A DNA stretch of 64,000 bases from an uncultured Bacillota bacterium (GCA_937888735.1 CALASN010000164.1:26643-90642); one strand, 5' to 3'; positions 23,903-45,679 are shown, counted from the first letter of the stretch. Program-made: numbers and translations. The notes: generated by a model from the letters alone, not told the origin.

Positions 23903-23912
23903 GCCCGGGCCA
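23888..23912. terminator. Palindromic GC-rich element (AAAGCCCGGGCTTT then AGGCCCGGGCC) between convergent genes, a candidate bidirectional terminator.
   Basis: AAAGCCCGGGCTTT is a perfect self-complementary 14-mer. It lies between the GH42 stop (23902) and the minus-strand small gene stop (23919). Confidence 0.35.
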
Positions 23913-23918
23913 GGAGGC

Positions 23919-24086: not shown

Positions 24087-24195
24087 TGACAACACCTCCC
24101 GCAGCTAGTGTGTCCGAGAGGTAATGATTTTATTGCTGCAGGCTTTGTTTTTGTTGCTGGCGAAGTGATAAGAATGTTTAAAAGAGGCGGAGGCA

Positions 24196-26876: not shown

Positions 26877-26960
26877 GGCTAGAGCCTCCTTTGCGGCAAT
26901 AAAGATGTGTGCCGTTTAATCCAAGTGTACTGCTTGTTATATGGAAAAGCAAGTGCCGAT

Positions 26961-27013
26961 TTGTGATAATAGATTCACAGTCTAGGCGATCTGTCGCCGG
27001 GCCTGTGAATCTA
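26961..27013. promoter_or_regulatory. Composite operator-like element in the araC/27041 divergent intergenic region: TGTGA-N8-TCACA overlapping a perfect 11-bp inverted repeat (TAGATTCACAG ... CTGTGAATCTA, 22-nt spacer).
   Basis: Read directly from the sequence. It lies 28 nt upstream of ATG 27041. Confidence 0.3.
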
Positions 27014-27040
27014 GCCAGCGGCTATGCGAAGGAGGAAATT

Positions 27041-30000
27041 ATGAGCGTTTCCTGTAAAAAAGAGAGAAGGCCCATCCTTACCTATGTGCCGGGCCAGCCC
27101 AATAAAATGCCGTATTTTATCGAGGGAAAGGCCTATCAGGGAGCATGCGGCCGGGTATATCCCATCCCGGTCCGCGATCAGCTGAGCGATGCGCCTGTGG
27201 AAGTGGAGTATGACGTGATCACGCTTGCCAACGAGCACATCGAGGTGAATTTGCTGCCGGAGCTTGGCGGGAAAGTGTATGGCGCCAAGAGCAAACACAA
27301 CGGCTATGAGTTCGTCTACCAAAACCCGGTGGTTAAGCCAGCGCTGGTGGGACTGGCCGGACCTTGGGTTTCCGGCGGCATTGAATTCAACTGGGCGCAG
27401 CATCACAGGCCCACCACCTTTGCTCCCGTGGAAGCCACGGTTCAAAACAATCCTGATGGTTCCGTAACTTGTTGGCTGGGAGAGGCGGAACCGTTCCATC
27501 GGCTGCGGGGCGCGGTGGGGATTACCCTTTACCCGGGGAAATCCTATCTGGAAGCGAAGGCGCTCCTTTATAACAGAACAGACCTGCCGCTGCCGTTTAT
27601 GTGGTGGAACAATCTGGCCGTGCGGGTCAATCCCCAATATAAAGCCGTCTTTCCGCCGGACGTGGAATATGTCAGCGACCATGACCGGAGGGCGGTTATT
27701 TCTTTTCCCGTCATGCGAGGGATCTTCGAGACGGCGCGGCCTTACGACTATGGCGACGGTGTGGACGGCACGTGGTATCCCAACATCAAAATTCCCACTT
27801 CGGTGATGGTCATGCGCGGACAATCAGAGATGAATTTTCTGGGCGGTTATGATTTTGCAAAAAACGCCGGCACTGTCACCGTGGCCGACCATTACGTGTC
27901 TGTGGGGAAAAAAATGTGGACCTGGGGCGACTGTGAATTTGGGAGGGCCTGGTGCAAAAACCTGACTGATAACGACGACCGTTATATCGAGCTGATGACG
28001 GGAGTCTATACCGATAATCAGCCGGATTTCACCTATCTGATGCCGGGAGAAACCAAGGAGTTTACGCAGGTTTGGTATCCGATCCAGGAGATCGGGGAAG
28101 TGGCAAACGCCACAATCGACGGGGCGCTTTCCTGCAGACAGGAGGGCAGGAAGCTGTTCCTTGGCGCCATTGCCACAGCGCTTTTCCCCAACGCCCGCTT
28201 GTCGGTCGCCCTTGACGGCAAGACCATTTTCGAAAAAACAGCGTCTGTGGCGCCGGACCGGAGTTGCCTTGCCGAGACAGTGCTGCCTGACGGAGCGGAG
28301 ATCAACAGCGTGCGCGTGGCTCTGGAGAGCGCGGAGGGAAAAGAATTGGTCTCCTATGTCCCCGTGCGGCGCGGAGTCAAGAAAAAGCCCCAAGCGCGCA
28401 GCATTCCGCCCAGGCCGGAGGAAGTTAAGAGCGTAGAAGAGCTTTACCTGCACGGCGCGCATCTGGAGCAATACAAACATCACACTTACAAACCTGAGGC
28501 TTATTATCTGGAAGCTTTGCGCCGCGACCCTTCAGATTACCGCTCAAACTTGGCTTTGGGCCGGCTCTGCACCGAAAAGGCGCAATTCGAAACAGCCCGT
28601 GTCTATTTGAACAGGGCCGTTGCCAAGCTCACCTGCCGCAACGATAACCCCGCGGATACGGAAGCCGTTTATCTGCTGGGACGTCTGGAAAAGCTCTGCG
28701 GAAACCCTGACGCTGCGTACGAACTCTTTCAGCGGGCTGCCTGGCAATATCCCTGGCGCAGCCAGGCGTATCTTGAAATTGCCAGGATCGACTGCGCCCG
28801 GGGAGAAAAGCAGCGGGCAATTCATTATCTGCGGCTTTCCCTGGAAACCAACGCCAAGCTCTTTGCTGCCCGCACCCTGCTGGGCTATTTGCTGCAGGAT
28901 AAAAAGCTGCTGGGGCGCGTCCTTACAGACGCGCCCCAGGATACGTTTGCGCGGTTTGCCCTCTATCTGTTGGGCGGGGAAGAGGTTGCCGCTTTCATTT
29001 TGCACCGTCCGGAAGACGTTCTGGATGTGGCATTGGAGTTTAAGCAGGCGGGCCTGTATCAGGAGGCGGTCCGCGTCTTGGATCTGTGCCAAAGGCCAAA
29101 TCTGCTGCTGAAATTTCATAAGGCCGCCCTCTTGGGGCAGCCGCCGGAAGACGCCACGCTGGATTACTGCTTTCCCAACCGTCTGGAAGATCTTGCGGTT
29201 TTAGCCGGACGTAACGACTGGCGAGCGGCATATCTGCTGGGCTGCCTATATTACGACAGGCTGAATTATGCCTCGGCAGCCGACGCCTGGGAGACGTCCG
29301 TGCGTCTGCACGAAAACAATCCGTATGCGCTGCGTAATCTTGCCTTTGCCTATTACGACCACCTGGGCCGCAAGCAAGAAGCATTGGGGTTGTTGCAGGA
29401 AGCCCTGGCGCGGGATCCCCAAAACGCCCGCCTGCTGTACGAACTGCTGCAGTTGAAGAAAAACCTGGGATCCACGGCTGAAGAAAGGCTGGCGCTGCTG
29501 GAGTCCCACGCCGCGCTCGTTTGCCAGAGGGATGACTGTTACTTGAGCTGGGCCATGCTCTATACCCAAACCGGACAGTACGAAAAGGCGGAGCAGCTTT
29601 TAAAAACCCGCAGCTTCCATATTTACGAGGGCGGAGAAGGTATGCTGACCCGGCATCATAGTTGGCTCTACACCCTTATGGGAGCCGAAGCCATGCGGGA
29701 AGGAAACTATGAAAAAGCAGCGAAATGTTTCCCAAATGCGCTCGCCTTTCCGGCTAACTACGGTGAAGGGAAACATTACAGCGCCCAGGAAAGCAACGTC
29801 TGGTATTATGCGGGGCTGCTGAACGAACAGCGGCATCTTCCCCGGCAGGCGAAAGAATGCTATGAGCAAGCGGTGCAACAACCCCCGCGGCTTACGGAAA
29901 TCTCCTATTTTACCGCCCGGGCGGGGGAGAAACTGGGACAGCCGGAGCAGGCAGCGGAGCTGTTTCGTCAAATGTGCGCCCAGGCCGGGGAACGTCTCAC

Positions 30001-30223
30001 AACAGCTGATCTTCCCGGTTACTTCGGCGTGGGCAGCCCGGTGCCGCAGCCTTTTGAGCTGGATCTGGAAAAGGTAAACCGCGTCAACGCTTATCTGCTC
30101 TTGGCGTTGGGGCAAAAAGGCTTGGGCAATCTTAAAGCAGCGGAAGCCTGCGTTCAGGAATTAGTCCGGTTGGATCCTTATAACGCGACGCTTGAGATCT
30201 ATAGGAAGTTGGACGTACTATAA
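27041..30223 (+). CDS. Large (~1060-aa) cytoplasmic protein with an N-terminal beta-rich domain (DUF5107-like) followed by multiple TPR repeats.
   Basis: GAAGGAGG RBS 4 nt before ATG 27041. The C-terminal half is rich in A/L/Y TPR-like repeats (AYYLEALRRDP, AYLLGCLYYD, ALRNLAFAYY). Confidence 0.65.
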   Translation: MSVSCKKERRPILTYVPGQPNKMPYFIEGKAYQGACGRVYPIPVRDQLSDAPVEVEYDVITLANEHIEVNLLPELGGKVYGAKSKHNGYEFVYQNPVVKPALVGLAGPWVSGGIEFNWAQHHRPTTFAPVEATVQNNPDGSVTCWLGEAEPFHRLRGAVGITLYPGKSYLEAKALLYNRTDLPLPFMWWNNLAVRVNPQYKAVFPPDVEYVSDHDRRAVISFPVMRGIFETARPYDYGDGVDGTWYPNIKIPTSVMVMRGQSEMNFLGGYDFAKNAGTVTVADHYVSVGKKMWTWGDCEFGRAWCKNLTDNDDRYIELMTGVYTDNQPDFTYLMPGETKEFTQVWYPIQEIGEVANATIDGALSCRQEGRKLFLGAIATALFPNARLSVALDGKTIFEKTASVAPDRSCLAETVLPDGAEINSVRVALESAEGKELVSYVPVRRGVKKKPQARSIPPRPEEVKSVEELYLHGAHLEQYKHHTYKPEAYYLEALRRDPSDYRSNLALGRLCTEKAQFETARVYLNRAVAKLTCRNDNPADTEAVYLLGRLEKLCGNPDAAYELFQRAAWQYPWRSQAYLEIARIDCARGEKQRAIHYLRLSLETNAKLFAARTLLGYLLQDKKLLGRVLTDAPQDTFARFALYLLGGEEVAAFILHRPEDVLDVALEFKQAGLYQEAVRVLDLCQRPNLLLKFHKAALLGQPPEDATLDYCFPNRLEDLAVLAGRNDWRAAYLLGCLYYDRLNYASAADAWETSVRLHENNPYALRNLAFAYYDHLGRKQEALGLLQEALARDPQNARLLYELLQLKKNLGSTAEERLALLESHAALVCQRDDCYLSWAMLYTQTGQYEKAEQLLKTRSFHIYEGGEGMLTRHHSWLYTLMGAEAMREGNYEKAAKCFPNALAFPANYGEGKHYSAQESNVWYYAGLLNEQRHLPRQAKECYEQAVQQPPRLTEISYFTARAGEKLGQPEQAAELFRQMCAQAGERLTTADLPGYFGVGSPVPQPFELDLEKVNRVNAYLLLALGQKGLGNLKAAEACVQELVRLDPYNATLEIYRKLDVL

Positions 30224-30333
30224 CAAAGAGAGCCGTCAGCTAAAAGTTGAGCCGCGCCTTTTTCCCGGTCCGGTATTGAGGCTGCCTTTGAATGTTCCGC
30301 GGTGATTTTGCGCTCAGAAAGGAGTTAGTGAAG

Positions 30334-31449
30334 ATGGGAACGATTTGGACAAAAGAAAGGGCCTGGCAATGGTATGATAGCCGTCCCTGGCTGCGGGGAT
30401 GCAATTTTATGGGGAGCGACTGTGCCAACAGGATCGATCAATGGCAGGAGTTGGGTTTTGAGGAACGGCTGAGAACAGCCGATGCCGAGCTGGCGCTGGC
30501 TCAAAAAACGGGCTTCAATTCCATTCGGATTATTTTGGAGTTCGTCGTCTGGCAGCAGCAGCACGACGGTTTTCTGCAACGGCTGGACAGATATCTGGAA
30601 ACCGCGTGGAAACACGGCATCTCCTGTATGGTGGTGTTGGGGAACGACTGTATGCCGCCCAAAGACGAGTTTTACAAGCCCCCTCAGGTGGGAGTTCAGA
30701 CATATGATTGGGGCTACCATGGCGGGCGGAAGCATTCCCAGCATGCTCATTTTTCCGGCATGGGCTATCATCTGCTGGACGAGCCGGAACTTGCGCAGCT
30801 CCATTATGAATGGGTGCGGGAAATCATCAGTACCTTTCGGAACGACCGGCGCATCGTCATGTGGGATCTTTATAATGAGGCTGGCAATTCTAAACGCGAG
30901 GCGGCGACGCTGCCGCATTTGAAGAAATTTTTTGAAATCGCCAGGGAAGTGGATCCCATTCAGCCGCTGACCTGCTGTACGTTTCGTTGCCCCGGAGATC
31001 CCCGGCGAGAGATTCCGGCCCTCGAGCGCTTTGCGCTGGAAAACTCTGATCTCATTTCTTACCACAGCTATGCGGATTATCAGGAAAACGTCCGCGTTAT
31101 CAAACGCCTAAAGCGATTCGGCAGACCCATCGTCTGCACCGAGTGGCTGGGACGGTGCATACATAACACTGTGCAGGAGATGTTCCCGCTGTTTTATTTG
31201 GAAAAGATCGGCTGCTATAACTGGGGCTTGGTGGCGGGCAAATACCAGACTTACGAACCCTGGGAAGGTCTCTGGCAGGAGTATGAAAAGCAGCCGCAGG
31301 CGGATGTGGATTTCACCAAGTGGTTTCACGACCTGTACCGGCCGAACCTGCGACCGTACGATCCCCGGGAAATTGAACTGATCAAGCGCTTCTGCGGATA
31401 CGCGGATTACGATTTTTCATTGGAAACGGCTGGGAACAGCGACGGCTAA
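30334..31449 (+). CDS. Cytoplasmic clan GH-A TIM-barrel glycoside hydrolase (cellulase/GH5-like family).
   Basis: AAAGGAG RBS. No signal peptide. The WDLYNEAGNS region looks like an acid/base motif and the VCTEWLG region like a nucleophile motif. Confidence 0.6.
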   Translation: MGTIWTKERAWQWYDSRPWLRGCNFMGSDCANRIDQWQELGFEERLRTADAELALAQKTGFNSIRIILEFVVWQQQHDGFLQRLDRYLETAWKHGISCMVVLGNDCMPPKDEFYKPPQVGVQTYDWGYHGGRKHSQHAHFSGMGYHLLDEPELAQLHYEWVREIISTFRNDRRIVMWDLYNEAGNSKREAATLPHLKKFFEIAREVDPIQPLTCCTFRCPGDPRREIPALERFALENSDLISYHSYADYQENVRVIKRLKRFGRPIVCTEWLGRCIHNTVQEMFPLFYLEKIGCYNWGLVAGKYQTYEPWEGLWQEYEKQPQADVDFTKWFHDLYRPNLRPYDPREIELIKRFCGYADYDFSLETAGNSDG

Positions 31450-31532
31450 CTGTGAGCGTACCGACGCGGAGCTTGGTCATAGACGAGCATACAGACATCG
31501 CCAAAGAAAAAGTGATGGAAGGGGAGATGAAA

Positions 31533-32771
31533 ATGGCTGGTGAAATTATATATAAATCAGGCGACAGACAAAGGCTCAGTTATGACGTAGTGGTTGCCGG
31601 AGGAGGCCCCGCGGGAATCGCGGCCGCTTTGGAAAGCGCCCGTTCCGGCGCCAGAACCGCTTTAATCGAACGGTATGGGATTTTGGGGGGAAACCTTACT
31701 TCAGGCTTTGTCGGCCCGATTATGGGTTTGGTATCAGAGGGGACGATCGCGGATGAAATCGAACGGGCTCTGGACTTGAGGCTGGTGAAAGTCCAGAATA
31801 TGGAGCGCGCAAAATATGTTTTTGTCAGGATGTTGACGGAAGCCGGAGTGGATATTTATTATCAGACGCTGCTCGCGGGCGTCGCCGTCCGAGGCGAAAG
31901 AATTGATGCTGCCGTGGCCGTAGGAAAATGCGGGATCTTTGATTTCCATGCGGAAATGTATATCGACGCCACTGGCGATGGCGACATGGCTTACTACGCA
32001 GGCTGTCCCTATCAAATGGGGCGGGAGGGTGATAACCTCGTGCAGCCTGTTTCCCTGATGTTTACGATCTGCGGCGTAGACCCCAGCCAGACTCAGGACT
32101 TGACCTGCTGGGATGATACGGTATTGACCAGCGGAAAGAAATATCTGCAGCTGTGTAAGGACGCCTGTGCTGGCGGAGAACTACCGCCGACGGTAAATAA
32201 GGTGCGTCTTTATCTGACGCAGCTTCCGGGGGAGCGGATGGTGAACGCGACGCAGGCCAACGGGATCGATCCGTTTTCCGCGGCGGATTTGCAGAGAGCC
32301 GAGCTGGATCTGCGGACGCAAATTGAAATGGTTGTAGCATTTCTTCGCGCTCACGTTCCGGGGTTTGAAAACATATGGGTAAAGGCCGGCGCGAGCACTC
32401 TGGGCGTCCGGGAATCAAGACGCATAACTGGAGATTACATACTTCAGGATCTGGATGTGGTCACCGGTCGGAAATTCGAGGATGTGGCCGTCCACAATGT
32501 AAATTTCCCGATTGACATCCATAATCCGTCTGGCGCCGGCCAGGCGGAAACGGAGGGACTACGTCCGCATATGGCGCAGCCGTATGATATTCCGTTCTCC
32601 TGTATGCGGCCGCTGGGGATCGATAATCTTTGCACTGCCGGAAGATGCATCTCCGGTACGCATCGCGCCCACGCTTCCTACCGGGTCATGCGTGTTTGTA
32701 TGGCGATGGGACAGGCGGCCGGAGCCGTCGCCGCTGTGGCGGCCGCTCGAAAAGTCGGCGCCGTGAAGTGA
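31533..32771 (+). CDS. FAD-dependent oxidoreductase (glycan-locus-associated FAD-binding protein family).
   Basis: Rossmann motif VVVAGGGPAGIAAALESARSGARTALIERYGILGGN. Start chosen at ATG 31533 behind a GGAAGGGGAG RBS. Confidence 0.7.
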   Translation: MAGEIIYKSGDRQRLSYDVVVAGGGPAGIAAALESARSGARTALIERYGILGGNLTSGFVGPIMGLVSEGTIADEIERALDLRLVKVQNMERAKYVFVRMLTEAGVDIYYQTLLAGVAVRGERIDAAVAVGKCGIFDFHAEMYIDATGDGDMAYYAGCPYQMGREGDNLVQPVSLMFTICGVDPSQTQDLTCWDDTVLTSGKKYLQLCKDACAGGELPPTVNKVRLYLTQLPGERMVNATQANGIDPFSAADLQRAELDLRTQIEMVVAFLRAHVPGFENIWVKAGASTLGVRESRRITGDYILQDLDVVTGRKFEDVAVHNVNFPIDIHNPSGAGQAETEGLRPHMAQPYDIPFSCMRPLGIDNLCTAGRCISGTHRAHASYRVMRVCMAMGQAAGAVAAVAAARKVGAVK

Positions 32772-32869
32772 ATTACAGGGAAGTCCAGCAGCGCCTGATT
32801 CGAAATGGCGTAAAGCTTTTTGATTAATTACACTTTCGCGGTAAGGAACAGCCAGTCGGTCCTTGTAAA

Positions 32870-34383
32870 ATGCGGGTAATTTGCCAATTAAATATTCAAT
32901 CAGCTTACGTATTACGACCTAGTGAGGTATGGGCAGAGACGCTGATGTTTTTCGCTCAAGTCTGCAAAAAAGAAAGTAATTATCATGCTGTGACTGGGGC
33001 ATTCTGGGGATACCTACAAAACCAAGATCTTTTATGGAGCGGCCAGACACGGTACAAGCAGGTGATGGATTGTCCAGATCTAGATTTTTGGGCTTCACCC
33101 TATACGTATGAGAATAGGTCCTGGACAGTTCGCTTCAATGCGTTATACTGTCAAATCTCTTCAAAAGCATGGTAAGTTATGGTTTACAGAAGCAGATACA
33201 TTTATAAGCGATTCAAGTATCGGTTCCCATATACAGCATGGTTTTCCAATGACAACTAAAGAGCAGGACAAGGAACTTTTAAAACGTGATTTCATTTATC
33301 CTCTTTGCGAAGCAACACAAGCATGGTGGATCGATTGGTCATCTGGGATTTCACAGTATGAAGAAAACGCGTTTAAACCTTTAATGAGGCGTATGCAACA
33401 AATTGGGAGAGCTTCCTTAAATATGCCGCTGGGAAGTGTTTTTGAAATTGCCGCTGTAGTAGACCAAGAAAGCCTTCATACAACGCCAAATTCTCAACTT
33501 ATGGTAAACGCAATCGATCGTTTTCGGATTCATGAATTACCTTTTATCGGGACCCCAATAGATTATTATGAGACTGACGATGTTATTGACGGCTCTGAGC
33601 AAAAATATAAAATGTATATATTTTTAAATAATTATTCGATGGACGATGAAGAACGTGAAAAAATTGAAAATAACCTTTAAAAATGGCAACATACTCGTTT
33701 GGATGTACGGCGCAGGATTAATTAATCCGGATGCCAAGAAAACGGTCGGTGAAAGTAATGTTTCAGATCTTACAGGCATTAATATGAGAATAGAAATGGT
33801 TGAACAGCGTTCCCGAATAAAGGTAATGGATGGTGCGCATAACTTTTTATTGGGGATAAGAGATGGCGATGAAAGCGGCGACTTCGAAAAGATAATAAGC
33901 TGTGGATATATTAATTTCGAGTTTATTAAAGGTTTTGGCAGTTATGTGAAAACATATAAAGCCGCACCTTGTATGATAAATCCGGTAATTCATATAGATG
34001 ATCCTGACACTACAGTTTTGGGCAAATATATATCTGGCGGGCAAGCAGGCTTTGCAATCAAAGAATTTGATGCTTGGACATCAGTTTATATAGGTTCTCC
34101 CGCTGCCCAAGCAGATGTTCTTCGTGCAATTGCGAAAAAAGCCGGCGTTCATTTATTTGCCGATAAGGATGTAATCGTCTATGCGAATGAAAGCTATGGT
34201 GGACTACATACTGTAACTGATGGGCATTACATTGTTAATCTAAAGGATAATTCCGATGTTATCGAGGTATTTGACGAGCGTGACATTGCGAAAAACGTTA
34301 AAGAATTCGAAGAGTACATACCCAAAGAAACTTCCCGACTATATTGCCTACAACCTAATAAAATAAAGAATTGCCTGACTTGA
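32870..34383 (+). pseudogene. Decayed GH42-like glycoside hydrolase gene: 5'-truncated and split across three reading frames (32870..33175, 33108..33680, 33646..34383), in an AT-rich segment.
   Basis: Three overlapping ORFs in frames 2, 0 and 1 read as one protein. QKYKMYIFLNNYSM resembles the GH42 trimerisation-domain motif YKLLIAPMLYM of the intact paralog. Local GC is about 30% against about 55% in the flanks. Confidence 0.5.
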
Positions 34384-34682
34384 GAAAGTAAATGCACATC
34401 CTGGAGCGCAATAACCCTTGCAAAGGTAAGGACGCTGGCTGAACGCGACTGCCTGAGAACTTGACTTAAACAAATAGAGCCAGAACGCCTTGCGCGCTCA
34501 CAGAAGCGCGTCTCCGTATTTTTTTTTATGAAAAGGAGGTTGGGCAAGCTGCGGTCGCTTGGCAGTGTGTCCCGAGATTTAAATCTCCAAGTTGGAGTCT
34601 CTCCCCAGTTTTATCACAAAGCCTACCGCTCGCTCATAGAATAAGGATATAGTTTACGCCAAAATTTTCATCAGGAGGCGAT

Positions 34683-35204
34683 ATGATGAGCGGTTCGAGT
34701 AATATCTGCGATGTTAAAGTCAACCTGCCGTACCCTCCCGTACAGGCGGAAAGCCGCCGGGTCGAAGATGCCTATGCCATGTTGAGCAATGTGGGCAGTG
34801 GCAATTCCGAGATGACTGCGGTTAGTCTATACTTTTACAACAGCGTAATCCTGACGCCGAATTATGCTTTCTTCGCCAGGTGCTTTCATGAAATCAGCAT
34901 CGTCGAAATGCATCATCTGGATATGTTTGCCAATCTCGCTTTTCAAATGGGATTAGATCCGCGGCTATGGAGCATGGAAGGATCGAAATTATGCTACTGG
35001 ACTCCAGCGTACAATCGTTATCCCTGGATGATACGGGAAGTCATTGAAAATGCGATTAAAGGTGAAAGAGCCGCCATAGCGAAATATAGCGCACAGGCTG
35101 AAACGATTCCTGACCGGAATATTGGGGCGCTCTTAAATCGTATCATTCTCGATGAGCGACGTCACATTGAGATTTTTCATAAAATGTTGGAACAGCTGCC
35201 TTGA
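34683..35204 (+). CDS. Ferritin-like di-metal carboxylate protein (CotJC / Mn-catalase-like).
   Basis: E, ExxH, E, ExxH ligand pattern (EMTAVSLYFY, EMHHLDMF, ERAAIAKY, ERRHIEIF) in a 173-aa protein. AGGAGG RBS. Confidence 0.6.
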   Translation: MMSGSSNICDVKVNLPYPPVQAESRRVEDAYAMLSNVGSGNSEMTAVSLYFYNSVILTPNYAFFARCFHEISIVEMHHLDMFANLAFQMGLDPRLWSMEGSKLCYWTPAYNRYPWMIREVIENAIKGERAAIAKYSAQAETIPDRNIGALLNRIILDERRHIEIFHKMLEQLP

Positions 35205-35401
35205 GAGCAGGATGCCTACGGAGATCATCGTCCGAGTGAAACAGGCTAACTTTGAGCTCATCCAAGATCTGGAAATGTGAGAACCGAAACCTGAGCTTGT
35301 AATGAAGAATGTCCAACCGTAAAAGGAAAAGAGGCGCCGAGTACGATATCAAGATCTGGGATCTGGATAACTTCACCAGCTGGTTGGGAGTTGAAGAACC
35401 A

Positions 35402-35620
35402 TTACGGTGCTTGAAAATAGAAGAGACCTAAAAATACATGAAAAATGGCAGACGCATGTCCAAAACGTACGTAACCTTTGCGATATGCCCGGCGCTTAGG
35501 GTTATGTCTACCCTTTAGTCCGATCTTAGCAGTCAGTTCTTGATTCATCATCTTTTCCACCACCACGGTGATTCCAATCTCTGTGCAGAGATTAAGAAGT
35601 CCCTCCTCAGCTGAAGCCAT
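35402..35620 (-). mobile_element. IS256-family (mutator-type) transposase N-terminal fragment, a remnant.
   Basis: The translation QELTAKIGLKGRHNPKRRAYRKGY matches the IS256 ELT..LG.....R....RNGY block. The ORF is truncated after about 70 aa. Confidence 0.4.
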
Positions 35621-35761
35621 AATTGAGGGAGATTATCTGTTGCAATGGCGTATCGAGGGCGCTTCTAATTATGTCTTCTTGAGTCTGCATCAGCGCGTTG
35701 AGTTTGAGATAACTGCATTGCGGTTCATCCGTAAATTATTGTTTTCTGCACCAATAATTTT

Positions 35762-36025
35762 TACATTTAAAGTGAGGAGCTGCTATGCCCAAATTTCACG
35801 GAGAATGGGACAACTTCAGAAACGGTCCCAGCGCTACTAATTTGTGAAATTGGTCACAGACGGTTGGATATTGAAGATTCAGGGTTTAATGATCTGAAAA
35901 ACCATTGGAAGCTGGATCATGTTTACACTCATGATCTAAATGCTCTGGAACCTGAATTCCCGGTTATAACTGTTCCGGGAACGCAGGCCGCAAATAATCT
36001 GGCTAATGTACGCCATAACATATGA
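35762..36025 (+). mobile_element. IS4/Tn5-like DDE transposase C-terminal fragment, a remnant.
   Basis: RRLDIEDSGFNDLKNHWKLDH fits the YREK-region signature R(W).IE..F..LK......L(E/D). There is no start codon and no upstream catalytic region. Confidence 0.3.
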
Positions 36026-36342
36026 TATTTTCATGCTCATGGTGAAGCGAAATCCGAGAAGTAAGGAACTTAAAGAACAGCCGCTAAAGGAATTGGCAGC
36101 GATAATGTCAGTGGTCCTAACGCGCCAGAGAAAAATGAAAAAGAGAAAGGCCATTGCATAAAATTGGTAACTCTGGAGAGAACCAGTCAGTAAAAAAATC
36201 AATTTGGGAAAAGGGGGAGTTCCGTCTAAAAAATGGCTTTTATGGGCTTTTAAGCGGTTATCTCTCGTTGCTGGCGGCTCAACGTGGTCCCCCGACCTTT
36301 TGAAGAATACATTTGCGGAATCCTCGGTCAATTTTACCACTC

Positions 36343-36371
36343 TTGACCAGCTTTTTGTTGTATGGTATGAT
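36343..36371 (+). promoter_or_regulatory. SigA-type promoter for the lysA operon (TTGACC, 17-nt spacer, TATGAT).
   Basis: Read directly from the sequence. The leader is only about 35 nt, so there is no room for an L-box. Confidence 0.35.
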
Positions 36372-36404
36372 AATTATTAGCATTTTTCACGAGGGGGAAC
36401 TAAC

Positions 36405-37742
36405 GTGAGGCTATACGGGACCATGGAGGTCGGAGCTAATGGCCACCTTTACATAGGCGGCTGCGATGCTTTGGAACTGGCTGAAAACTGGGGTACGCCT
36501 CTGTATGTGATGGACGAAGCGGAGATTCGCCGCCGCGCCAGAGCGTACAAACAAGTGCTGGCTGAAAACTATCCAGAGAGCAAAGTGATTTACGCGGGAA
36601 AAACCTTTATGACCATGGCCATGTGTAGGCTCATGGAAGAGGAAGGCTTAGGTCTCGATCTGGTTTCAGACGGGGAACTGTATACGGCCCTCTCCGCCGG
36701 GTTCCCAACCGAAGACGTTTACCTGCACGGCAATAATAAATCTCCGGCCGAATTGGAATTGGCCGTCACGCGCGGCGTGGGCAGAATTGTGGTGGATAAT
36801 CTCTATGAGCTGGAATTATTGGATAAAATAGCGCAAAAACATAAGAAGAAAGTCAAGATCATCCTGCGGGTAACGCCTGGAGTGGAAGCGCATACCCATT
36901 CGTACATTCAAACCGGACAAGTAGATTCCAAGTTCGGGCTGGGAATTCACAATGGACTGGCCCAAGAAGGCGTCCGGCAGGCGCTTGAGTTGGAAGGCGT
37001 GGAGCTCGTTGGATTGCATTGCCATATTGGCTCTCAGATCTTCGAACTGGACTCTTTTGATGTGACGATTGAAGTCATGTTGGATTTTATGGCCAAACTA
37101 AAGACACAGCTGCAATGGGAGTGTCAAGAGCTCAGTTTAGGCGGCGGCCTTGGCATTCGCTACACAGATCGCGATCCAGACGTCTCAATTGAAGATTTCG
37201 GCAAGAGAATTGCCGGCAAACTGAAAACTGAGGCGCAAAAGCATGGCTTACAACTGCCGGCTTTAGTTGTGGAACCGGGTCGTTCCATTGCCGGGGAGGC
37301 GGGGACAACCCTTTACACAATTGGCTCCATCAAGGAAATCCCGGGCATCCGCAAGTATGCGGCTGTAGACGGCGGCATGGGCGATAACCCCAGGGTCGCG
37401 CTTTATCAGGCTGAATATCAGGCCTTGCTGGCCAACAGAGCAAACGAGCCGGCAACAGATACGGTCTCCATCGCCGGCAAGTGCTGTGAATCCGGAGACA
37501 TGCTGATTTGGGATTTGGCGGTTCCAGAGCCCAGAAGCGGAGATCTCTTGGCGGTATTCTGCACGGGAGCATATAATTATTCCATGTCCAGCAATTACAA
37601 CCGCCTGCCAAGGCCTGCGGTGATTTTGGTGCTGAATGGCAAAGCGGATTTGATCGTCCAGAGGGAAAGCTATGAAGATTTGATCCGCTTGGATAATGTG
37701 CCCGCGCGTCTTGCCAAGGAGAAGATGAGAATTGCCCTATAA
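36405..37742 (+). CDS. lysA: Diaminopimelate decarboxylase.
   Basis: 445-aa PLP fold-III decarboxylase. Motifs YAGKTF and the EPGR.I.G block. GTG start after GAGGGGGAA. Confidence 0.9.
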   Translation: MRLYGTMEVGANGHLYIGGCDALELAENWGTPLYVMDEAEIRRRARAYKQVLAENYPESKVIYAGKTFMTMAMCRLMEEEGLGLDLVSDGELYTALSAGFPTEDVYLHGNNKSPAELELAVTRGVGRIVVDNLYELELLDKIAQKHKKKVKIILRVTPGVEAHTHSYIQTGQVDSKFGLGIHNGLAQEGVRQALELEGVELVGLHCHIGSQIFELDSFDVTIEVMLDFMAKLKTQLQWECQELSLGGGLGIRYTDRDPDVSIEDFGKRIAGKLKTEAQKHGLQLPALVVEPGRSIAGEAGTTLYTIGSIKEIPGIRKYAAVDGGMGDNPRVALYQAEYQALLANRANEPATDTVSIAGKCCESGDMLIWDLAVPEPRSGDLLAVFCTGAYNYSMSSNYNRLPRPAVILVLNGKADLIVQRESYEDLIRLDNVPARLAKEKMRIAL

Positions 37743-37754
37743 GGGAGGCTGCTG

Positions 37755-38378
37755 ATGCTGGACTATAGTGTTCTGCGGATTTGCTTTCAGATCATGGCTT
37801 TTCTGTTTGCGATTTCCCTTCATGAATACGCTCACGGAGCCATGGCAAACCGCCTGGGTGATCCCACGGCCAGATACATGGGCAGATTGACGCTGAATCC
37901 ATTGCGGCACATCGATTTGTTCGGCGCGCTGACTTTGATCCTGACCAACTTTCGCTTTGGCTGGGCAAAACCTGTGCCCATTAATCCCAACAACTTCAAG
38001 AATCCCAGACAGGGAATGATGTATACGGGTCTGGCAGGTCCCCTGGCCAATTTGGCGGCAGCGCTTTGTTTTGCTCTGACCGTGAGGATTTTGGGGCTTG
38101 CTCCCTTGTCGGGGACTCTGCCCGGGGAGATCTTTGGCTATTTTTTATATTATAACGTTCTTTTGAACGTTGGTCTCGCCATTTTTAACTTGCTTCCCCT
38201 GCCGCCCCTGGATGGTTCCAAGATTTTGCTGGGCCTATTGCCGGCACGCTACGGGTGGCGTTTCGAACAATTTGATCAGTATGGACCGCTGATTTTATTG
38301 TTTTTGGTCTGGACGGGAGTTTTGGTCAGGATAATTAACCCACTCTATCAGGTGGTGATCCGAGTTTTACTGGGGTAG
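37755..38378 (+). CDS. Site-2 protease family (M50-like) membrane zinc metalloprotease.
   Basis: HEYAHGAMANRLGD contains the HExxH motif. NPLRHIDLFGAL is present. The 207-aa protein is multi-TM. Confidence 0.75.
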   Translation: MLDYSVLRICFQIMAFLFAISLHEYAHGAMANRLGDPTARYMGRLTLNPLRHIDLFGALTLILTNFRFGWAKPVPINPNNFKNPRQGMMYTGLAGPLANLAAALCFALTVRILGLAPLSGTLPGEIFGYFLYYNVLLNVGLAIFNLLPLPPLDGSKILLGLLPARYGWRFEQFDQYGPLILLFLVWTGVLVRIINPLYQVVIRVLLG

Positions 38379-38383
38379 GAGGA

Positions 38384-39370
38384 ATGACGGAATTGACGGT
38401 AATCGTGAGCGGAATGAGACCGACGGGCCCACTGCAGCTTGGCAACTATCTTGGAGCTTTAGATAATTGGGTCAAGCTCCAAGCTGAGAATCAGTGTTTC
38501 TTTTTCGTGGCAGATTGGCATGCCCTGACCACAGGTTATGAAAATACCGACGATCTCAGGGAAAATACCAAGATGATGATTATAGACTGGCTCAGCGCGG
38601 GCATTGATCCGGAGCGAAGCGTAATCTTCCGGCAGTCAGATTTGAAGGAACACGCGGAGCTGCACCTGCTTTTTTCCATGATCACGCCCTTGGCGTGGCT
38701 GGAGCGCTGCCCTACGTACAAAGATCAGCTGCAGCAGCTTTCGGATCGCAACATCACCACTTACGGCTTTTTAGGTTATCCGAGCCTCATGGCTGCGGAT
38801 ATCCTGATGTACAAACCGCAGTTCGTGCCCGTAGGCGAAGATCAGCTGCCCCATTTGGAATTGGCCCGCGAGATCGCCAGACGCTTCAACTTCCTGTATG
38901 GTCCCGTTTTTCCCGAACCCCAGGCTAAGATGACTCGGGTCACGCTCTTGCCAGGTTTGGACGGACGAAAGATGAGCAAAAGCTACGGCAACACGATTTC
39001 CATGAGCGGAGACCCCGCTGAGATCAAGGAAAAAGTTGCCGTCATGATCACAGATCCAGCCCGGGCGCGGCGCAGCGATCCGGGAGATCCGGAAAAATGC
39101 ACGGTTTTCACTTTTCAGAAGATCTTTGCCCGCCCTGAGGAGCTGCCACCCATTGTGGAAGGCTGCAAGACCGCCGGCATCGGCTGCGTGGATTGCAAAA
39201 AGCAGCTGATGGCTAGAATGATCGACAGGCTGGCGCCCATCTATAGCCGCAGACAGGAATTGTTAGCGCAGCCTGATTTAGTTGAGGAAATTTTAGCCAA
39301 GGGCGCGGGAGAGGCCAGGAAAGTAGCCGGCAAAACCATGGCGCAAGTACGGGAAGCGATGAAGCTATAA
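38384..39370 (+). CDS. trpS: Tryptophan--tRNA ligase.
   Basis: Class I synthetase with a degenerate HIGH region (TGPLQLGNYLGAL) and a KMSKS motif. 328 aa. Confidence 0.9.
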   Translation: MTELTVIVSGMRPTGPLQLGNYLGALDNWVKLQAENQCFFFVADWHALTTGYENTDDLRENTKMMIIDWLSAGIDPERSVIFRQSDLKEHAELHLLFSMITPLAWLERCPTYKDQLQQLSDRNITTYGFLGYPSLMAADILMYKPQFVPVGEDQLPHLELAREIARRFNFLYGPVFPEPQAKMTRVTLLPGLDGRKMSKSYGNTISMSGDPAEIKEKVAVMITDPARARRSDPGDPEKCTVFTFQKIFARPEELPPIVEGCKTAGIGCVDCKKQLMARMIDRLAPIYSRRQELLAQPDLVEEILAKGAGEARKVAGKTMAQVREAMKL

Positions 39371-39371
39371 A

Positions 39372-40121
39372 ATGGCATATCAGGTGCAGCTGCCCACCTT
39401 TACAGGTCCTTTGGACCTGCTTTTGCATCTCATCAGGCGCCACGAAATTGATATTTACGATATACCCATCAGCTTAATTACGGAGCAATATCTGAAGTCT
39501 TTAAGGGAAATGCGCCGGCTGGATCTGGAGCTGGCTGCTGATTTTTTGGTGATGGCTGCCACTTTAATGCAGATCAAAGCCAGGATGCTGCTGCCAAAGC
39601 CTGACCCGCCATTGCCGGATGAGGATGAAGCGGATCCCAGAGCTGAATTGGCAAGACAACTGGCGGAATACAGTCAATTCAAAGCCGCCTCTGAAATTTT
39701 GGCGGAGCGAGAGGCGCAGTGGCAGCAGGTTTTCTGCAGGCCTTTGGACGCCATCATGCAGGATCGGGCGGCGCTCCCAGCGGAGCCTGAATTGCCGCTG
39801 AACGTTTCCCCCCAATTCCGGCTGGAAGTGAAGGAATTGTGGAAAGCGCTGGCCAGGATTTTAGAGCGCCAGAAGCGCTCTGAAAGCGAGGTCATGGCCA
39901 GAGAGAAGGTAACCTTACCGGGGCAGCTGGAGAATATTCGCAGCCTGCTGCGGCAAGGCGAGATTAGCTTTCAGGCGATCTTTGCCGAAAAACCTAGCCG
40001 CCTGGTGATTGTAGTGACTTTTCTGGCTTTATTAGAGTTGATCCGCTTAGGCGAGGTGGAAATTCGGCAAACTGAGAATTTTGGAGATATTTTGATCGAA
40101 GGACATAAGCATGAAGCATAG
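39372..40121 (+). CDS. scpA: Segregation and condensation protein A.
   Basis: The N-terminus FTGPLDLLLHLIRRHEIDIYDIPISLITEQYL is the ScpA signature. Confidence 0.85.
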   Translation: MAYQVQLPTFTGPLDLLLHLIRRHEIDIYDIPISLITEQYLKSLREMRRLDLELAADFLVMAATLMQIKARMLLPKPDPPLPDEDEADPRAELARQLAEYSQFKAASEILAEREAQWQQVFCRPLDAIMQDRAALPAEPELPLNVSPQFRLEVKELWKALARILERQKRSESEVMAREKVTLPGQLENIRSLLRQGEISFQAIFAEKPSRLVIVVTFLALLELIRLGEVEIRQTENFGDILIEGHKHEA

Positions 40122-40632
40122 AGAGCGTGCCGCCTTGGAGGCAATGCTTTTTTTAGCCACCCAGCCCCTTCCCCTGGCAGAGTTGGCCAAACGTCTTAAT
40201 GTCGATGAGGAGACAGTCGGCAGGCTAGTGGCACAGTTAGAACAGGAATATGCGGCCAGGGAAAGCGGCCTTGAGATCGTGCCCTTGGGAGGCGGCTTGC
40301 GGCTTTGCACCAGGCCGGAATTGGCCCGCTATCTGCTTCCCCCAGAACAGCCGCCTCATCTTTCCGCGGCAAGCCTTGAGGTGCTGGTGATTGTGGCCTA
40401 CAGGCAACCTGTGACCCGCAGCCAGATTGAACAAATCAGAGGCGTGCGGTCTGAGCGGGCATTGGCAAGCTTGGTGGAGCGCGATTTGATCACCGAAGCC
40501 GGCAGGGCAGAAGGCCCCGGCAGGCCGATTCTCTATGGCACAACCGCGACTTTCCTGGAAACATTTGGTTTCAATACGCTGCAGGAATTGCCCAGTCTGC
40601 CCGCTCAGCTGACTAGCAAACAGGATTCTTAG
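40111..40632 (+). CDS. scpB: Segregation and condensation protein B.
   Basis: 173 aa. Winged-helix repeats ALEAMLFLATQPL and VIVAYRQPVTRSQIEQIRGV. The gene overlaps the scpA stop. Confidence 0.85.
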   Translation: MKHRERAALEAMLFLATQPLPLAELAKRLNVDEETVGRLVAQLEQEYAARESGLEIVPLGGGLRLCTRPELARYLLPPEQPPHLSAASLEVLVIVAYRQPVTRSQIEQIRGVRSERALASLVERDLITEAGRAEGPGRPILYGTTATFLETFGFNTLQELPSLPAQLTSKQDS

Positions 40633-41023
40633 GGCCATGTTCCGTTTTCCTGCCGAAGCCCAGTTGCGCCAGTAATTGGGGCGCCATATCCAAGATGCGA
40701 TCGTAAATTGCGTTTTGGTTAACGGACAGGAGCCTTACGTTACCCTGGCCTACAACTAGAAAGCCAACGGGCTGCAAGGAAATGCCGGCGCCTGATCCTC
40801 CTCCGAAAGGCGCTTTCTGCTGCGCTTCCGTTTCGAATTCCGTTCCGCCGGCTGCAAACCCAAAGGAAACCTTAGAGAACGGCAAGATTACATTTCCATC
40901 CGGCGCTTCCACAGCTTCACCCAAAATGGTATTCACATCCACCATTTCATTGATCTTTTCCATGGCGGTCTTCAGTAAACCTTCAATCGGATGCTGCTTT
41001 TTTTCCGTTCCTTCTTCCGGCAT
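40613..41023 (-). CDS. ytfJ: Sporulation protein YtfJ (GerW family).
   Basis: HPIEGLLKTAMEKINEMVDVNTILGEAV...GAGISLQPVGFLVV matches the YtfJ/GerW family. Its 3' end overlaps the scpB 3' end by 20 nt (convergent genes). Confidence 0.8.
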   Translation of the reverse strand: MPEEGTEKKQHPIEGLLKTAMEKINEMVDVNTILGEAVEAPDGNVILPFSKVSFGFAAGGTEFETEAQQKAPFGGGSGAGISLQPVGFLVVGQGNVRLLSVNQNAIYDRILDMAPQLLAQLGFGRKTEHGPKNPVC

Positions 41024-41498
41024 TTCTCACCACATCCTTCCAGTAATTGACAAAGACGTACTTAGCGCTGACAATGATAATATAGCCTGGAACAAGCCGA
41101 AATATGCAAAAGCCGCGTCCAGTTAAAGCCGGCTCCGGGCCAAAGACTGGTCTGACCGCGAAAGCCGCTTTCCTCGGGAAAAGCGGCTTTATTGCTCCCC
41201 ACAGCAGCCACAGCAGTCCCGCGAGCCTGGCTGTCTGGGCAGCGTCGCCCGTCCCCACGGCAAGCTGCAGCGAGAAGGCGGTCATTTTGATTTTGCTCTC
41301 CAGGTAGATTTTTCGGAATAATTTGAGCTTCCGCCAGTTCGGTTGGCTGGTGGGCTCTTCGCCTTGGCTTTTTTTGCCAGCTGGAAGAGGAAATGAGATC
41401 CCCAGCCAGCGCAGTTTGATTTTTAGCTCCGGCTCCAAACTGAGGCACAGATGCAGCGGGATAATGCAGAGCAGCAGGATGATGGCAAAGACTATCAT
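40983..41498 (-). CDS. ytfI: DUF2953 (YtfI-like) sporulation-associated membrane protein.
   Basis: Start chosen at minus-strand ATG 41498 behind a GGGAGGA RBS. The N-terminal TM segment is MIVFAIILLLCIIPL. It sits beside ytfJ as in Bacillus subtilis. Confidence 0.6.
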   Translation of the reverse strand: MIVFAIILLLCIIPLHLCLSLEPELKIKLRWLGISFPLPAGKKSQGEEPTSQPNWRKLKLFRKIYLESKIKMTAFSLQLAVGTGDAAQTARLAGLLWLLWGAIKPLFPRKAAFAVRPVFGPEPALTGRGFCIFRLVPGYIIIVSAKYVFVNYWKDVVRNAGRRNGKKAASD

Positions 41499-41596
41499 AG
41501 CTATATCCTCCCAATTTTGCCCGGGCAATATGTAAATCTTTCGCGCCTGTGAAGTCTTTTCATCCTGTTGCATACAATAAAACAGGAGGTGAGGCT

Positions 41597-42883
41597 GTGA
41601 GCAAAATCGTAGTGATTGGCGGGGGATGGGCAGGCTGCGCTGCTGCTGTGGCCGCCAGACAAGCCGGCGCCGAGGTGACGCTTCTGGAGCGCACAGATAT
41701 GCTTTTGGGCACAGGCCTGGTGGGAGGAATCATGAACAACAACGGCAGGCTCAGCGCTGCCTGGGAAGCGCGAGCCATGGGCGCAGGCGCGCTCTTCGCC
41801 TTAATTGACGCCACAGTGCTTCATACTCAGGTGGAGTTTCCCGGCCATCACCATGCCTCCCTGTATGATGTGAATAGAATAGAGCCCCTGGTTGCAGCCT
41901 ACCTCGCCCAGCTGGGAATCAAAGTCCAGCTCTGCCAGAGAGCGGTCGACGTGGTCATGTCCGGAAAGACCATAGAAGCCGTGCTCACAGCGCAGAAACA
42001 AAAATATGAGGCTGACGCCTTTGTGGAAGCCACAGGCACGGCGGGACCTGTGGGCAATTGCCTTCGGTTCGATTCCAGCTGTGTAATGTGCATTCTTCGC
42101 TGCCCGACTTTCGGTCCCCGGGTGAGCATCGCGGCTAAAGCCGGCGTGGCTGAGAATACGGATCATCTCTTCGAAGCCCTGAGCGGTTCCTGCAAATTGA
42201 GGAAGGCGTCGCTGGCCAATTGGGTCGTAGAGAAGCTGGAGCGGGACGGAGTGCTGTTAATTCCCATTCCAAAATTTTTAGCGGAGGAAGATTTGCTGCA
42301 GAAGAAAGCCTGCCAGCAATACGCGCTGAAAGAGTTTGCAACCAATCTGGTGCTGCTGCACACGGGATCTGTGAAGCTGATGGCGCCTTTCTTCCCTCTG
42401 GAGAAGCTGCGCACGATTCGCGGCTTTGAACAAGCTAAATTTGAAGATCCCTATTCGGGAGGCAGAGGCAACTCTGTCCGTTATTGCCTGATCACTCCCC
42501 GGGATAATCAAATGCAAGTTGAAGGAGTGGAAAACTTATTTTGTGCCGGCGAAAAAGGAGGCCTGATGGTGGGCCATACGGAGGCCATCATCACAGGAAG
42601 CCTAGCGGGATGCAATGCGGTGCGCGAAGCCAACGGACTGCCGCTGCTTCAGCTGCCAAGGGCATTAGCCTCTGGAGACTTCATCGCCTTTGTCCGGGAA
42701 GAACTGAGCCTGGGCGCTCACCAAATGGGCAAATACACCTTTGCGGGCTCGGTTTATTTTCAGCGCATGCGCGAGCAGGGGCTTTATACCACGGATTTGG
42801 GGAAAATAGAGAGGCGCGTCAAGCAGTGCGGCCTGGAAGGCGTTTTTTCTCAGCCTTTGGAAGGACGAAAAAAACGCGGTTGA
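41597..42883 (+). CDS. FAD/NAD(P)-binding oxidoreductase with an internal Cys cluster (C-x7-C-x2-C-x4-C).
   Basis: Rossmann motif KIVVIGGGWAGCAAAVAARQAGAEVTLLER. Cys cluster NCLRFDSSCVMCILRCP. GTG start after AGGAGGTGA. Confidence 0.6.
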   Translation: MSKIVVIGGGWAGCAAAVAARQAGAEVTLLERTDMLLGTGLVGGIMNNNGRLSAAWEARAMGAGALFALIDATVLHTQVEFPGHHHASLYDVNRIEPLVAAYLAQLGIKVQLCQRAVDVVMSGKTIEAVLTAQKQKYEADAFVEATGTAGPVGNCLRFDSSCVMCILRCPTFGPRVSIAAKAGVAENTDHLFEALSGSCKLRKASLANWVVEKLERDGVLLIPIPKFLAEEDLLQKKACQQYALKEFATNLVLLHTGSVKLMAPFFPLEKLRTIRGFEQAKFEDPYSGGRGNSVRYCLITPRDNQMQVEGVENLFCAGEKGGLMVGHTEAIITGSLAGCNAVREANGLPLLQLPRALASGDFIAFVREELSLGAHQMGKYTFAGSVYFQRMREQGLYTTDLGKIERRVKQCGLEGVFSQPLEGRKKRG

Positions 42884-42908
42884 CAGGAATTGCGGCCGGT
42901 GATATTAT
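42880..42908 (+). promoter_or_regulatory. Near-consensus SigA promoter (TTGACA, 17-nt spacer, TATTAT) overlapping the stop codon of the upstream gene.
   Basis: Read directly from the sequence. Confidence 0.45.
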
Positions 42909-42942
42909 CCAGGTTGAAGAACAAACTGGAAGGAAGAGACAA

Positions 42943-43080
42943 GTGAAAAGATTCATCGGCCCAGGCCGCTTGGGTTCTAACGTTGCCGTTACATTTGAGC
43001 GTGATGTTCCGCTTGTGGACAAGAAGGAAGAGCGGGTTCGGGGACTAGCCAACCTAAATCGTTGGGAAGCGCTGTCTTAG
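42943..43080 (+). CDS. Candidate 45-aa small protein (no family recognised) immediately downstream of the strong promoter and overlapping the rluB start region.
   Basis: GTG start 5 nt after GGAAGGAAGAG. Translation VKRFIGPGRLGSNVAVTFERDVPLVDKKEERVRGLANLNRWEALS. Confidence 0.3.
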   Translation: MKRFIGPGRLGSNVAVTFERDVPLVDKKEERVRGLANLNRWEALS

Positions 43081-45485: not shown

Positions 45486-45486
45486 T

Positions 45487-45675: not shown

Positions 45676-45679
45676 TTGG

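Follow-up and report, generated by a model that had tools for sequence, protein, structure and literature searches.

A probable decaying remnant of horizontally acquired DNA upstream of lysA in an uncultured Bacillota bacterium

The DNA analysed here (the window) is a stretch of 64,000 nucleotides, one strand, from an uncultured Bacillota bacterium (GCA_937888735.1 CALASN010000164.1:26643-90642), with positions counted from its first letter. Between a glycan locus and a run of core genes that starts with lysA lies an AT-rich islet, which holds a broken glycosidase-like gene, an intact gene for a ferritin-like protein and the remnants of two insertion sequences (IS). An earlier note, made from the sequence of the window, had placed this islet at 32772-36400 and described it as an old horizontally acquired insertion, possibly a composite transposon carrying a beta-galactosidase, now eroding.

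Limits and composition of the islet

The genes to the right of the islet (lysA, an M50 protease gene, trpS, scpA and scpB) are syntenic in distant Bacillota, and the glycan genes to its left were never found near lysA in 80 relatives. The islet therefore lies at a junction of accessory and core DNA, and its placement between the glycan locus and core genes is upheld by the synteny of the flanks. The GC content of 32772-36400 is 0.423, compared with 0.548 for 20000-32771 and 0.550 for 36401-50000, so that windowed GC bears out a non-uniform composition, with an AT-rich island set against flanks of about 55%. The two lowest-GC 1-kb windows of the whole 64 kb (0.382 and 0.389) fall inside the islet, ~3.8 standard deviations (sd) lower than the mean of 1-kb windows outside the region (0.531, sd 0.039), and the lowest-GC part is the stretch with the broken gene (0.389). 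The earlier figure of about 30% GC in places holds at the 100-bp scale only, where values of ~0.22-0.33 occur around 33520-33930 (minimum 0.22 at 33601); with 300-bp windows the islet minimum is 0.35.

Both limits of the island had to be moved inwards, the left edge to or after 32828 and the right edge to ~36326. Two features define the left side:

32750..32827, plus strand: true 3′ end of a FAD-dependent oxidoreductase gene; host DNA and left limit of the islet, from the extension of the PF12831 match
32828..32896, no strand: unassigned spacer at the left junction, without coding or repeat feature

The gene for the FAD (flavin adenine dinucleotide)-dependent oxidoreductase, annotated at 31452-32771, has a frameshift near 32750-32768 that makes the annotated stop at 32771, and the last ~20 residues of the ancestral C-terminus run on in another frame to 32827. 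Joining this out-of-frame tail extended the PF12831 match from 402 to 416 of 416 and raised the score from 350.0 to 363.1 bits (+13). Because the restored frame completes the Pfam match, the foreign DNA begins after 32827. The frameshift region is identical in metagenome contigs L083 and L086. The adjoining DNA has a GC of 0.41 (32828-32923), and no family matches and no matching inverted or direct repeats were found in the spacer at 32828-32896. Terminal inverted repeats or target-site duplications flanking the islet were searched for at its ends, and none were found beyond short, imperfect, AT-rich matches consistent with chance. As a separate observation, the last gene of the glycan locus, the oxidoreductase gene, is thus also slightly truncated.

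A truncated and frame-disrupted glycosidase-like gene

Three forward frames in succession hold open reading frames (ORFs) at 32870-33175, 33108-33680 and 33646-34383. Joined, these give a sequence of 491 aa that is matched over 98% by proteins of ~770 aa, the best being P0001 (74% identity, E 2e-245); the homolog search thus unites them in one gene, where three unrelated genuine small genes had been the other outcome considered. The earlier note had described a 5′-truncated gene, similar to glycoside hydrolase family 42 (GH42), with two frameshifts, and both kinds of lesion were confirmed by tblastn of full-length homologs, with residues 290-354, 355-562 and 563-786 of P0001 aligning to 32924-33116, 33117-33677 and 33679-34365, respectively. 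The parts of the gene are:

32897..33116, plus strand: pseudogene segment 1; P0001 residues 290-354, P0003 from residue 254
33113..33117, plus strand: frameshift 1; GAGAAT-A-GGTCCT, between ...YTYEN and GPGQFASMRY
33117..33677, plus strand: pseudogene segment 2; P0001 residues 355-562, 76% identity
33675..33680, plus strand: frameshift 2; AACCTT-T-AAAAAT, apparently a one-base gain in a T/A homopolymer
33679..34383, plus strand: pseudogene segment 3; P0001 residues 563-786, 69% identity

Distant members of the protein family carry segment 1 back to ~32897, and tblastn found the first ~255-289 residues, which include the invariant glutamate E203 (P0001 numbering), nowhere in the 64-kb window. 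Segment 2 holds the candidate nucleophile motif LWFTEADTF, whose E379 is invariant in the family alignment. Frameshift 2 creates a TAA stop at 33678-33680. At the 3′ end, the native stop (~34363-34366) has been lost and the ORF continues to 34383, whilst the DNA homology to the gene for P0001 on contig L082 stops at 34368, exactly at the stop of that gene. An apparent 20-codon in-frame deletion at ~33491 was rejected as a lesion, as it falls in the one internal loop of the structural model with low confidence, where intact members have 15-44 residues.

Frameshift 1 reads the same in two independent assemblies, L083 and L086, and frameshift 2 in L083, L086 and L087. Since independent metagenome contigs are 99.7-100% identical across the lesions, these are not sequencing errors, and 32897-34383 is a truncated, frame-disrupted pseudogene. 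It has lost its promoter, its start, its first ~255-289 codons and one of the two invariant glutamates. Scans of the pseudogene ORFs and of the short IS-like ORFs against Pfam and NCBIfam gave no matches (no Pfam match at E ≤ 0.1 for the pseudogene ORFs), and identification therefore required homolog searches.

Remnants of two IS families, one inside the other

A plus-strand fragment at 35771-36022 gave 61 matches when compared by phmmer with 1.84 billion representative proteins. All eight of the longer matches scanned with Pfam, P0177 (431 aa) among them, contain DDE_Tnp_1 (PF01609), and the fragment fits the C-terminal end of this domain. With P0177 as probe, a collinear plus-strand series was obtained: residues 227-272 at 35221-35358, residues 262-317 at 35318-35485 (61% identity over 56 aa), residues 319-365 at 35810-35950 and residues 365-408 at 35991-36122. 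The IS4-like C-terminal fragment that had been noticed at 35762..36025 is therefore real, but its extent is greater, 35221-36326. The IS-derived features are:

35221..35485, plus strand: left part of the IS4-type remnant; P0177 residues ~227-317, with three in-frame stops and one frameshift
35486..35809, minus strand: insert of 324 bp with a putative IS256-family 5′ end, between IS4-type residues 317 and 319
35810..36158, plus strand: right part of the IS4-type remnant; residues ~319-431, with the stop at 36158
36159..36326, plus strand: non-coding 3′ end of the IS4-type element, with the right-hand terminal inverted repeat (~36303-36326)

The 5′ breakpoint of the IS4-type remnant is 16 bp past the stop of the ferritin-like gene. 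Its right part includes a catalytic-region motif, HRRLDIED, and one frameshift near 35950-35990. The right end was recognised from an intact relative on contig L093, an element of ~1.66 kb with 24-nt terminal inverted repeats ending ...CTATTTGCGGAATCCATG. An exact 13-mer of this end, ATTTGCGGAATCC, occurs once in the window, at 36311-36323; it sits at the expected distance past the transposase stop, and the homology to L093 runs through the 3′ non-coding region. On its right the islet ends with this terminal repeat, ~80 bp upstream of lysA.

Thus, the remnant resembles IS4-type elements (DDE_Tnp_1; NF033592) in being collinear with residues 227-431, in the HRRxDIE region and in a terminal repeat like that in L093, and DDE_Tnp_1 is present in part and disrupted (residues ~227-431). 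It differs from them in having stops, frameshifts and a foreign insert and in lacking the left end together with the first ~226 codons, the right end being intact. No left copy of the repeat was found in the window, and no target-site duplication. No NCBIfam IS-family cutoff is reached by the nearest intact relatives (56.6 bits, where IS4 requires 115), so the family label is loose among IS4, ISAs1, IS701 and IS1380. No match was obtained by tblastn of the IS4-like fragment against plasmids, nor from a word-indexed homolog search with the stitched 190-aa remnant.

The transposase reading frame of the IS4-type element is interrupted by the 324-bp insert, and reconstruction across it gives ...FAI|TTSET..., which matches ...YFV|TTCDK... 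in P0177. The part of the insert that appears IS256-like runs from ~35626 down to ~35486, corresponding to transposase residues ~22-68, with ~183 bp upstream of it. The minus-strand ORF at 35402-35620, earlier called an IS256-like N-terminal fragment, stood up to this comparison: it aligns with residues 23-79 of the 421-aa Sulac_3550 (38% identity, tblastn E 3e-5), which NCBIfam assigns to the IS256 family (NF033543, 232 bits). The fragment itself has no Pfam or NCBIfam match, and the DDE catalytic domain is absent (neither NF033543 nor PF00872 is matched). Compared with the IS256 family, only the extreme N-terminus is represented (45-65 residues, aligned with residues 22-79), nested in another element, and neither terminal repeats nor a target-site duplication could be identified. 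A 9-bp direct repeat, CCCGGCGCT (35488-96) and CCCAGCGCT (35827-35), was rejected as an IS256 target duplication because the homology puts the junctions elsewhere, and a weak IS256-like echo at 62421 was judged spurious, lying inside a GrpB gene. The earlier statement that remnants of two IS families are present with no intact transposase is correct, none being found in the whole 64-kb window.

Two contigs from sample ERZ724036, the start of L001 and the end of L086, have breakpoints no more than 6 bp apart in the IS256-like stub (35608-35614), which suggests that related IS256-like copies elsewhere in the community or genome confuse assembly.

Foreign composition of the pseudogene

The contig that carries the gene for P0001 (L082) has a GC of 0.365, and the gene itself has a GC of 0.382 and a GC at third codon positions (GC3) of 0.305. 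Segments 2 and 3, the greater part of the pseudogene by length, are very similar (GC 0.374-0.389, GC3 0.29-0.32); the short segment 1 has a GC3 of 0.46. Host genes on both flanks have GC3 values of 0.59-0.65. Because the locus of the closest intact homolog has the same GC and GC3 as the pseudogene and the host genes are higher, the low GC was inherited from a low-GC donor lineage and is unameliorated. The horizontal origin claimed for the islet thus holds for the pseudogene, which matches L082 and not the host genes. The description of the insertion as old needs qualification, as the foreign composition has not been ameliorated at all.

The islet in populations and relatives

The islet is present in six independent contigs, drawn from five metagenome samples, with 99.7-100% identity across its junctions, and no same-species contig lacks it. 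Seven single-nucleotide polymorphisms (SNPs) were found across the islet, 5/7 of them in the 1.5-kb pseudogene stretch. Polarised with L082, the SNPs are mixed and uninformative, with no AT-directed bias.

Contig L083 (JGI), which spans the glycosidase gene into lysA, differs only by a clean deletion:

34367..34468, no strand: segment of 102 bp deleted in L083 (at L083 3608-3609), with AA/TAA microhomology (2-3 bp)

The 102-bp segment is not repeated elsewhere in the window, and a deletion in L083 is for this reason the simpler reading. Contig L084 starts exactly at the deletion boundary, at 34470, and for the 102-bp polymorphism the data suggest that both alleles coexist in the sample of L084. 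Erosion of the islet continues, with the 102-bp deletion segregating among populations.

The organism is probably from a deep-branching uncultured lineage of Bacillota with spore genes (a YtfJ-like gene lies downstream). Its nearest LysA has ≤61% identity among 185,579 species representatives and the metagenome contigs returned, and two look-ups with the exact FAD-dependent oxidoreductase protein gave no close relatives. The search for an empty site, made through both proteins, found none because there was no closer relative to compare. The organism's own sequence turns up in assembled metagenomes of fermentation and other types.

Origin and decay of the islet

Taken together, the evidence makes it very probable that ~32828-36326 is a decaying remnant of horizontally acquired DNA upstream of lysA. 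That the insertion is eroding, as the earlier note had proposed, is seen in the truncation, the two frameshifts, the lost stop, the nested IS remnants and the segregating 102-bp deletion. The foreign origin and the lesions are in the data themselves, and for the order of events we infer the following course. Foreign DNA and an IS4-type element would have arrived upstream of lysA, and an IS256-like element would then have inserted into the IS4-type transposase gene. The glycosidase gene would then have lost its 5′ third and the IS4-type element its 5′ half by deletion, which would also have removed all but a stub of the IS256-like element. Point indels would have accumulated, with deletion ongoing (the 102-bp allele) and the ferritin-like gene staying intact. 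Nothing in the islet is mobile any more. It shares with degraded genomic islets a deviant composition, remnants of mobility genes, cargo that has become pseudogenic and a location where an accessory locus meets a syntenic core block; unlike them, it has no integrase, tRNA target or flanking repeats.

Several points weigh against this account. The term insertion is drawn from composition and content, the available relatives having ≤61% LysA identity. The left junction at 32828-32896 is without a recognisable feature. The putative IS256-like label comes from one database match over ~45-65 residues at 38% identity, the apparent junctions of the 324-bp insert are placed to ±15 bp, and no target-site duplication seems to fit them cleanly. 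The composition of the ferritin-like gene is intermediate (GC3 0.52), and this gene may not share the origin of the pseudogene.

In a composite transposon, as had been suggested, two IS copies would have bracketed and moved a beta-galactosidase gene that is now eroding, and IS remnants and a foreign glycosidase gene do lie within 3.5 kb of each other. We nevertheless regard this explanation as improbable. Two different IS families are represented, and their remnants sit on the right-hand side of the cargo only, one within the other, whereas left of the pseudogene there is no IS-derived sequence and no IS4-type repeat (the 13-mer occurs once). No flanking direct repeats were found, and in the four contexts seen the GH42-like gene is chromosomal without IS flanks. 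Since an IS on the left may have been lost by deletion, a composite origin can be neither proved nor strictly dismissed.

The low GC might instead reflect AT-biased mutational decay of a native gene after its inactivation. Pseudogenes drift toward AT in most bacteria, and the GC minimum of the islet coincides with the pseudogene. However, the intact and presumably functional homolog is equally low in GC and GC3, as is its whole contig, and the polarised SNPs do not lean toward AT. A protein identity of 69-76% to the homolog has been kept, more than heavy neutral drift would leave, and the IS remnants and the ferritin-like gene are likewise below host GC. AT-biased decay is thus highly improbable as the source of the composition.

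There is even less to be said for the three ORFs being separate genes, or being read by programmed frameshifting, such that a glycosidase-like protein is still made. ORFs 2 and 3 do begin with ATG and overlap their predecessors, and frameshift 2 lies in a slippery-looking T/A run. But ~255-289 residues are gone, among them the invariant E203 and roughly half of the catalytic barrel, and by direct reading no Shine-Dalgarno sequence precedes the internal ATGs. All 39 of the aligned full-length homologs are single chains of ~770 aa, and the 1.5-kb stretch has most of the population SNPs (5/7).

A mis-join of a low-GC block from another organism can be set aside almost entirely: although the source appears to be a metagenome-derived genome and two short contigs have breaks in the IS256-like stub or at an indel, L083 (JGI) runs from the glycosidase gene through the entire islet and into lysA with 100% identity, and L086 and L085, from different samples and assemblers, cross the left and right junctions, respectively.

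The horizontally acquired islet is an ordinary kind of genomic scar. For annotation, three 'hypothetical' ORFs become one pseudogene, the FAD-dependent oxidoreductase gene gains a 3′ frameshift, and several small ORFs at 35200-36340 are IS debris. For genome dynamics, it offers a clean small example of a nested IS insertion followed by deletional erosion, and, in a lineage of Bacillota not yet cultured, it marks where accessory DNA meets core DNA.

The ferritin-like gene

Between the pseudogene and the IS4-type remnant lies the only likely function left in the islet:

34683..35204, plus strand: gene for a ferritin-like di-iron protein, intact, 173 aa (Pfam, homologs, motifs)

The predicted protein matches the Pfam families Rubrerythrin (38.6 bits, cutoff 22.8) and Ferritin (30.2 bits, cutoff 24.5), and the metal-ligand pattern E / ExxH / E / ExxH can be read directly as SEMTAV, VEMHH, KGERAA and DERRH. 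On these grounds it is assigned to the ferritin-like proteins (four-helix-bundle di-iron proteins). The search returned 350 homologs of ~173 aa, with 76% identity for the best non-self match, and the protein belongs to a large uncharacterised clostridial clade annotated only as 'ferritin family protein'. It shares the E...ExxH...E...ExxH pattern and the Pfam families with bacterioferritin and rubrerythrin, here without a rubredoxin domain, and the nearest solved structures in the PDB are bacterioferritins.

The gene had earlier been called CotJC-like, a label that found no support. In Pfam the protein has no match to PF05067 (Mn_catalase) at E ≤ 0.1, and there is no Mn-catalase structure among its PDB matches; some homologs carry faint PF05067 matches. 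No small partner ORFs with family matches (cotJA or cotJB) were found upstream. The gene thus differs from the CotJC/Mn-catalase branch in both the domain match and the cotJA and cotJB partners.

The protein is 100% conserved in the six contigs and none of the seven islet SNPs falls in its gene, which is suggestive of constraint, the numbers being small. The gene has a GC of 0.467 and a GC3 of 0.517 and is preceded by a ribosome-binding site (RBS), AGGAGG. It has a promoter-like site of its own as well and is probably expressed. Homologs elsewhere are stand-alone genes in unrelated contexts, never beside a GH42-like gene, and co-transfer of the two genes was rejected, as they share no neighbourhood in other genomes. 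The candidate signals upstream of the gene are:

34493..34527, plus strand: hairpin, possible terminator; CGCGCT-cacaga-AGCGCG, then 8 nt, then nine T, by direct reading
34613..34642, plus strand: promoter-like site of the ferritin-like gene; ATCACA-18-TAGAAT, consensus match only

A consensus terminator scan missed the hairpin at 34493-34527, its T run being too far from the stem. The −10-like motif TCATAGAAT is common to the upstream region of one homolog (L094). Two overlapping perfect palindromes, GAGATTTAAATCTC and CTCCAAGTTGGAG, lie at 34574-34597, ~90-110 bp upstream of the ferritin-like gene. They may form an operator; two ferritin-like homologs do not conserve them in their upstream regions.

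Relationship of the broken gene to GH42

For the description of the broken gene as GH42-like, a distinction has to be made between fold and curated family. By the Pfam threshold the window ORFs do not qualify, and even among five full-length relatives only one, P0040, passes the PF02449 cutoff (32.5 bits, cutoff 21 bits). PF02449 gives P0024 and P0041 no more than 15-16 bits, P0003 matches only PF08532, the trimerisation domain, at 16.9 bits (cutoff 25.8), and P0001 has no Pfam match and, as a single protein, no sequence match in the PDB. A profile of 39 family members found nine PDB sequences, all of them GH42 enzymes (E 7e-4 to 0.5).

At the level of the fold the description stands. The AlphaFold model of P0001, the closest intact homolog, has a pLDDT of 91.2 and a pTM of 0.92, and in Foldseek all three of its domains align with GH42 beta-galactosidases and an arabinopyranosidase at 10-13% identity (best E 2e-25, TM 0.58-0.69, ~810-850 aligned columns). 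Clan GH-A enzymes rank after GH42 in the Foldseek list. The intact relatives, judged from the model, share the triosephosphate isomerase (TIM) barrel, the trimerisation-type domain and the C-terminal beta-sandwich of GH42 (PF02449, PF08532 and PF08533), as in the Thermus A4 beta-galactosidase (1KWG), Gan42B (4OIF) and a Bifidobacterium GH42 arabinopyranosidase (5XB7). They differ from GH42 in an identity of 10-13%, in Pfam scores below the gathering threshold (4/5 members) and in a length greater by ~80-100 residues, and the window copy is dead. GH42-like is thus right for the predicted architecture of the family, whilst its membership in GH42 is unproven; beta-galactosidase was a guess for this family.

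E203 and E379 are both invariant in the 39 aligned members, and E379 ends a predicted strand. In a hidden Markov model (HMM) alignment the GH42 acid/base glutamate falls a few residues off E203. The window copy encodes only the mid-barrel onward, and the equivalent of E379 is the only invariant glutamate that survives in it.

The family of P0001-P0042 is rare, with only 45 clusters found among 5.8 billion, and has no Pfam or NCBIfam model. Its members on L082, L089, L091 and L092 adjoin sugar ABC (ATP-binding cassette) permeases, an acetyl-xylan-esterase-like gene or unrelated genes. A genuine intact GH42 gene with all three Pfam domains (518, 265 and 46 bits) is present at 21809-23902 in the glycan locus, 9 kb upstream, and is unrelated in sequence to the family of the pseudogene.

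Tentatively, the ~770-aa family could be an unclassified glycoside hydrolase family of clan GH-A, possibly with a specificity other than that of GH42, although we think this rather less likely than not to be so. If it were, the window would hold a recently transferred and already dead copy of that family; the gene would move between low-GC Clostridia and the deep-branching Bacillota lineage without being retained, and its loss would possibly have come about because a canonical GH42 already serves the glycan locus. This unnamed family of GH42 architecture, present here as a dead copy, is the only mildly novel element of the islet, and it is the only broader lead, to be studied in intact members.

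Other features of the window

Besides the GH42 gene, the glycan locus encodes F5/8-type-C surface proteins, a solute-binding protein, GH130, a major facilitator superfamily (MFS) transporter, LacI, an esterase and AraC, and it further holds a 1104-aa ORF rich in tetratricopeptide repeats. Two large ORFs of the locus, 15490-17829 (779 aa) and 4101-7250 (1049 aa), have no Pfam match at E ≤ 1e-5 and are unrelated to the family of the pseudogene.

A second, milder low-GC stretch (0.42-0.45) lies at 58500-64000, without any sign of a transposase; it has genes for GGDEF, HD-GYP, a TRAM-domain methyltransferase, GrpB and a CN-hydrolase.

An Rfam scan of 32500-36700 gave only a chance snoRNA-like match (E 0.58), with no riboswitch or T-box upstream of lysA or of the ferritin-like gene. 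The gene that starts at 36405 was identified as lysA by Pfam, and a strong promoter-like site for it sits just beyond the end of the IS4-type element:

36343..36371, plus strand: promoter-like site for lysA; TTGACC-17-TATGAT with an extended −10 TG, consensus match only

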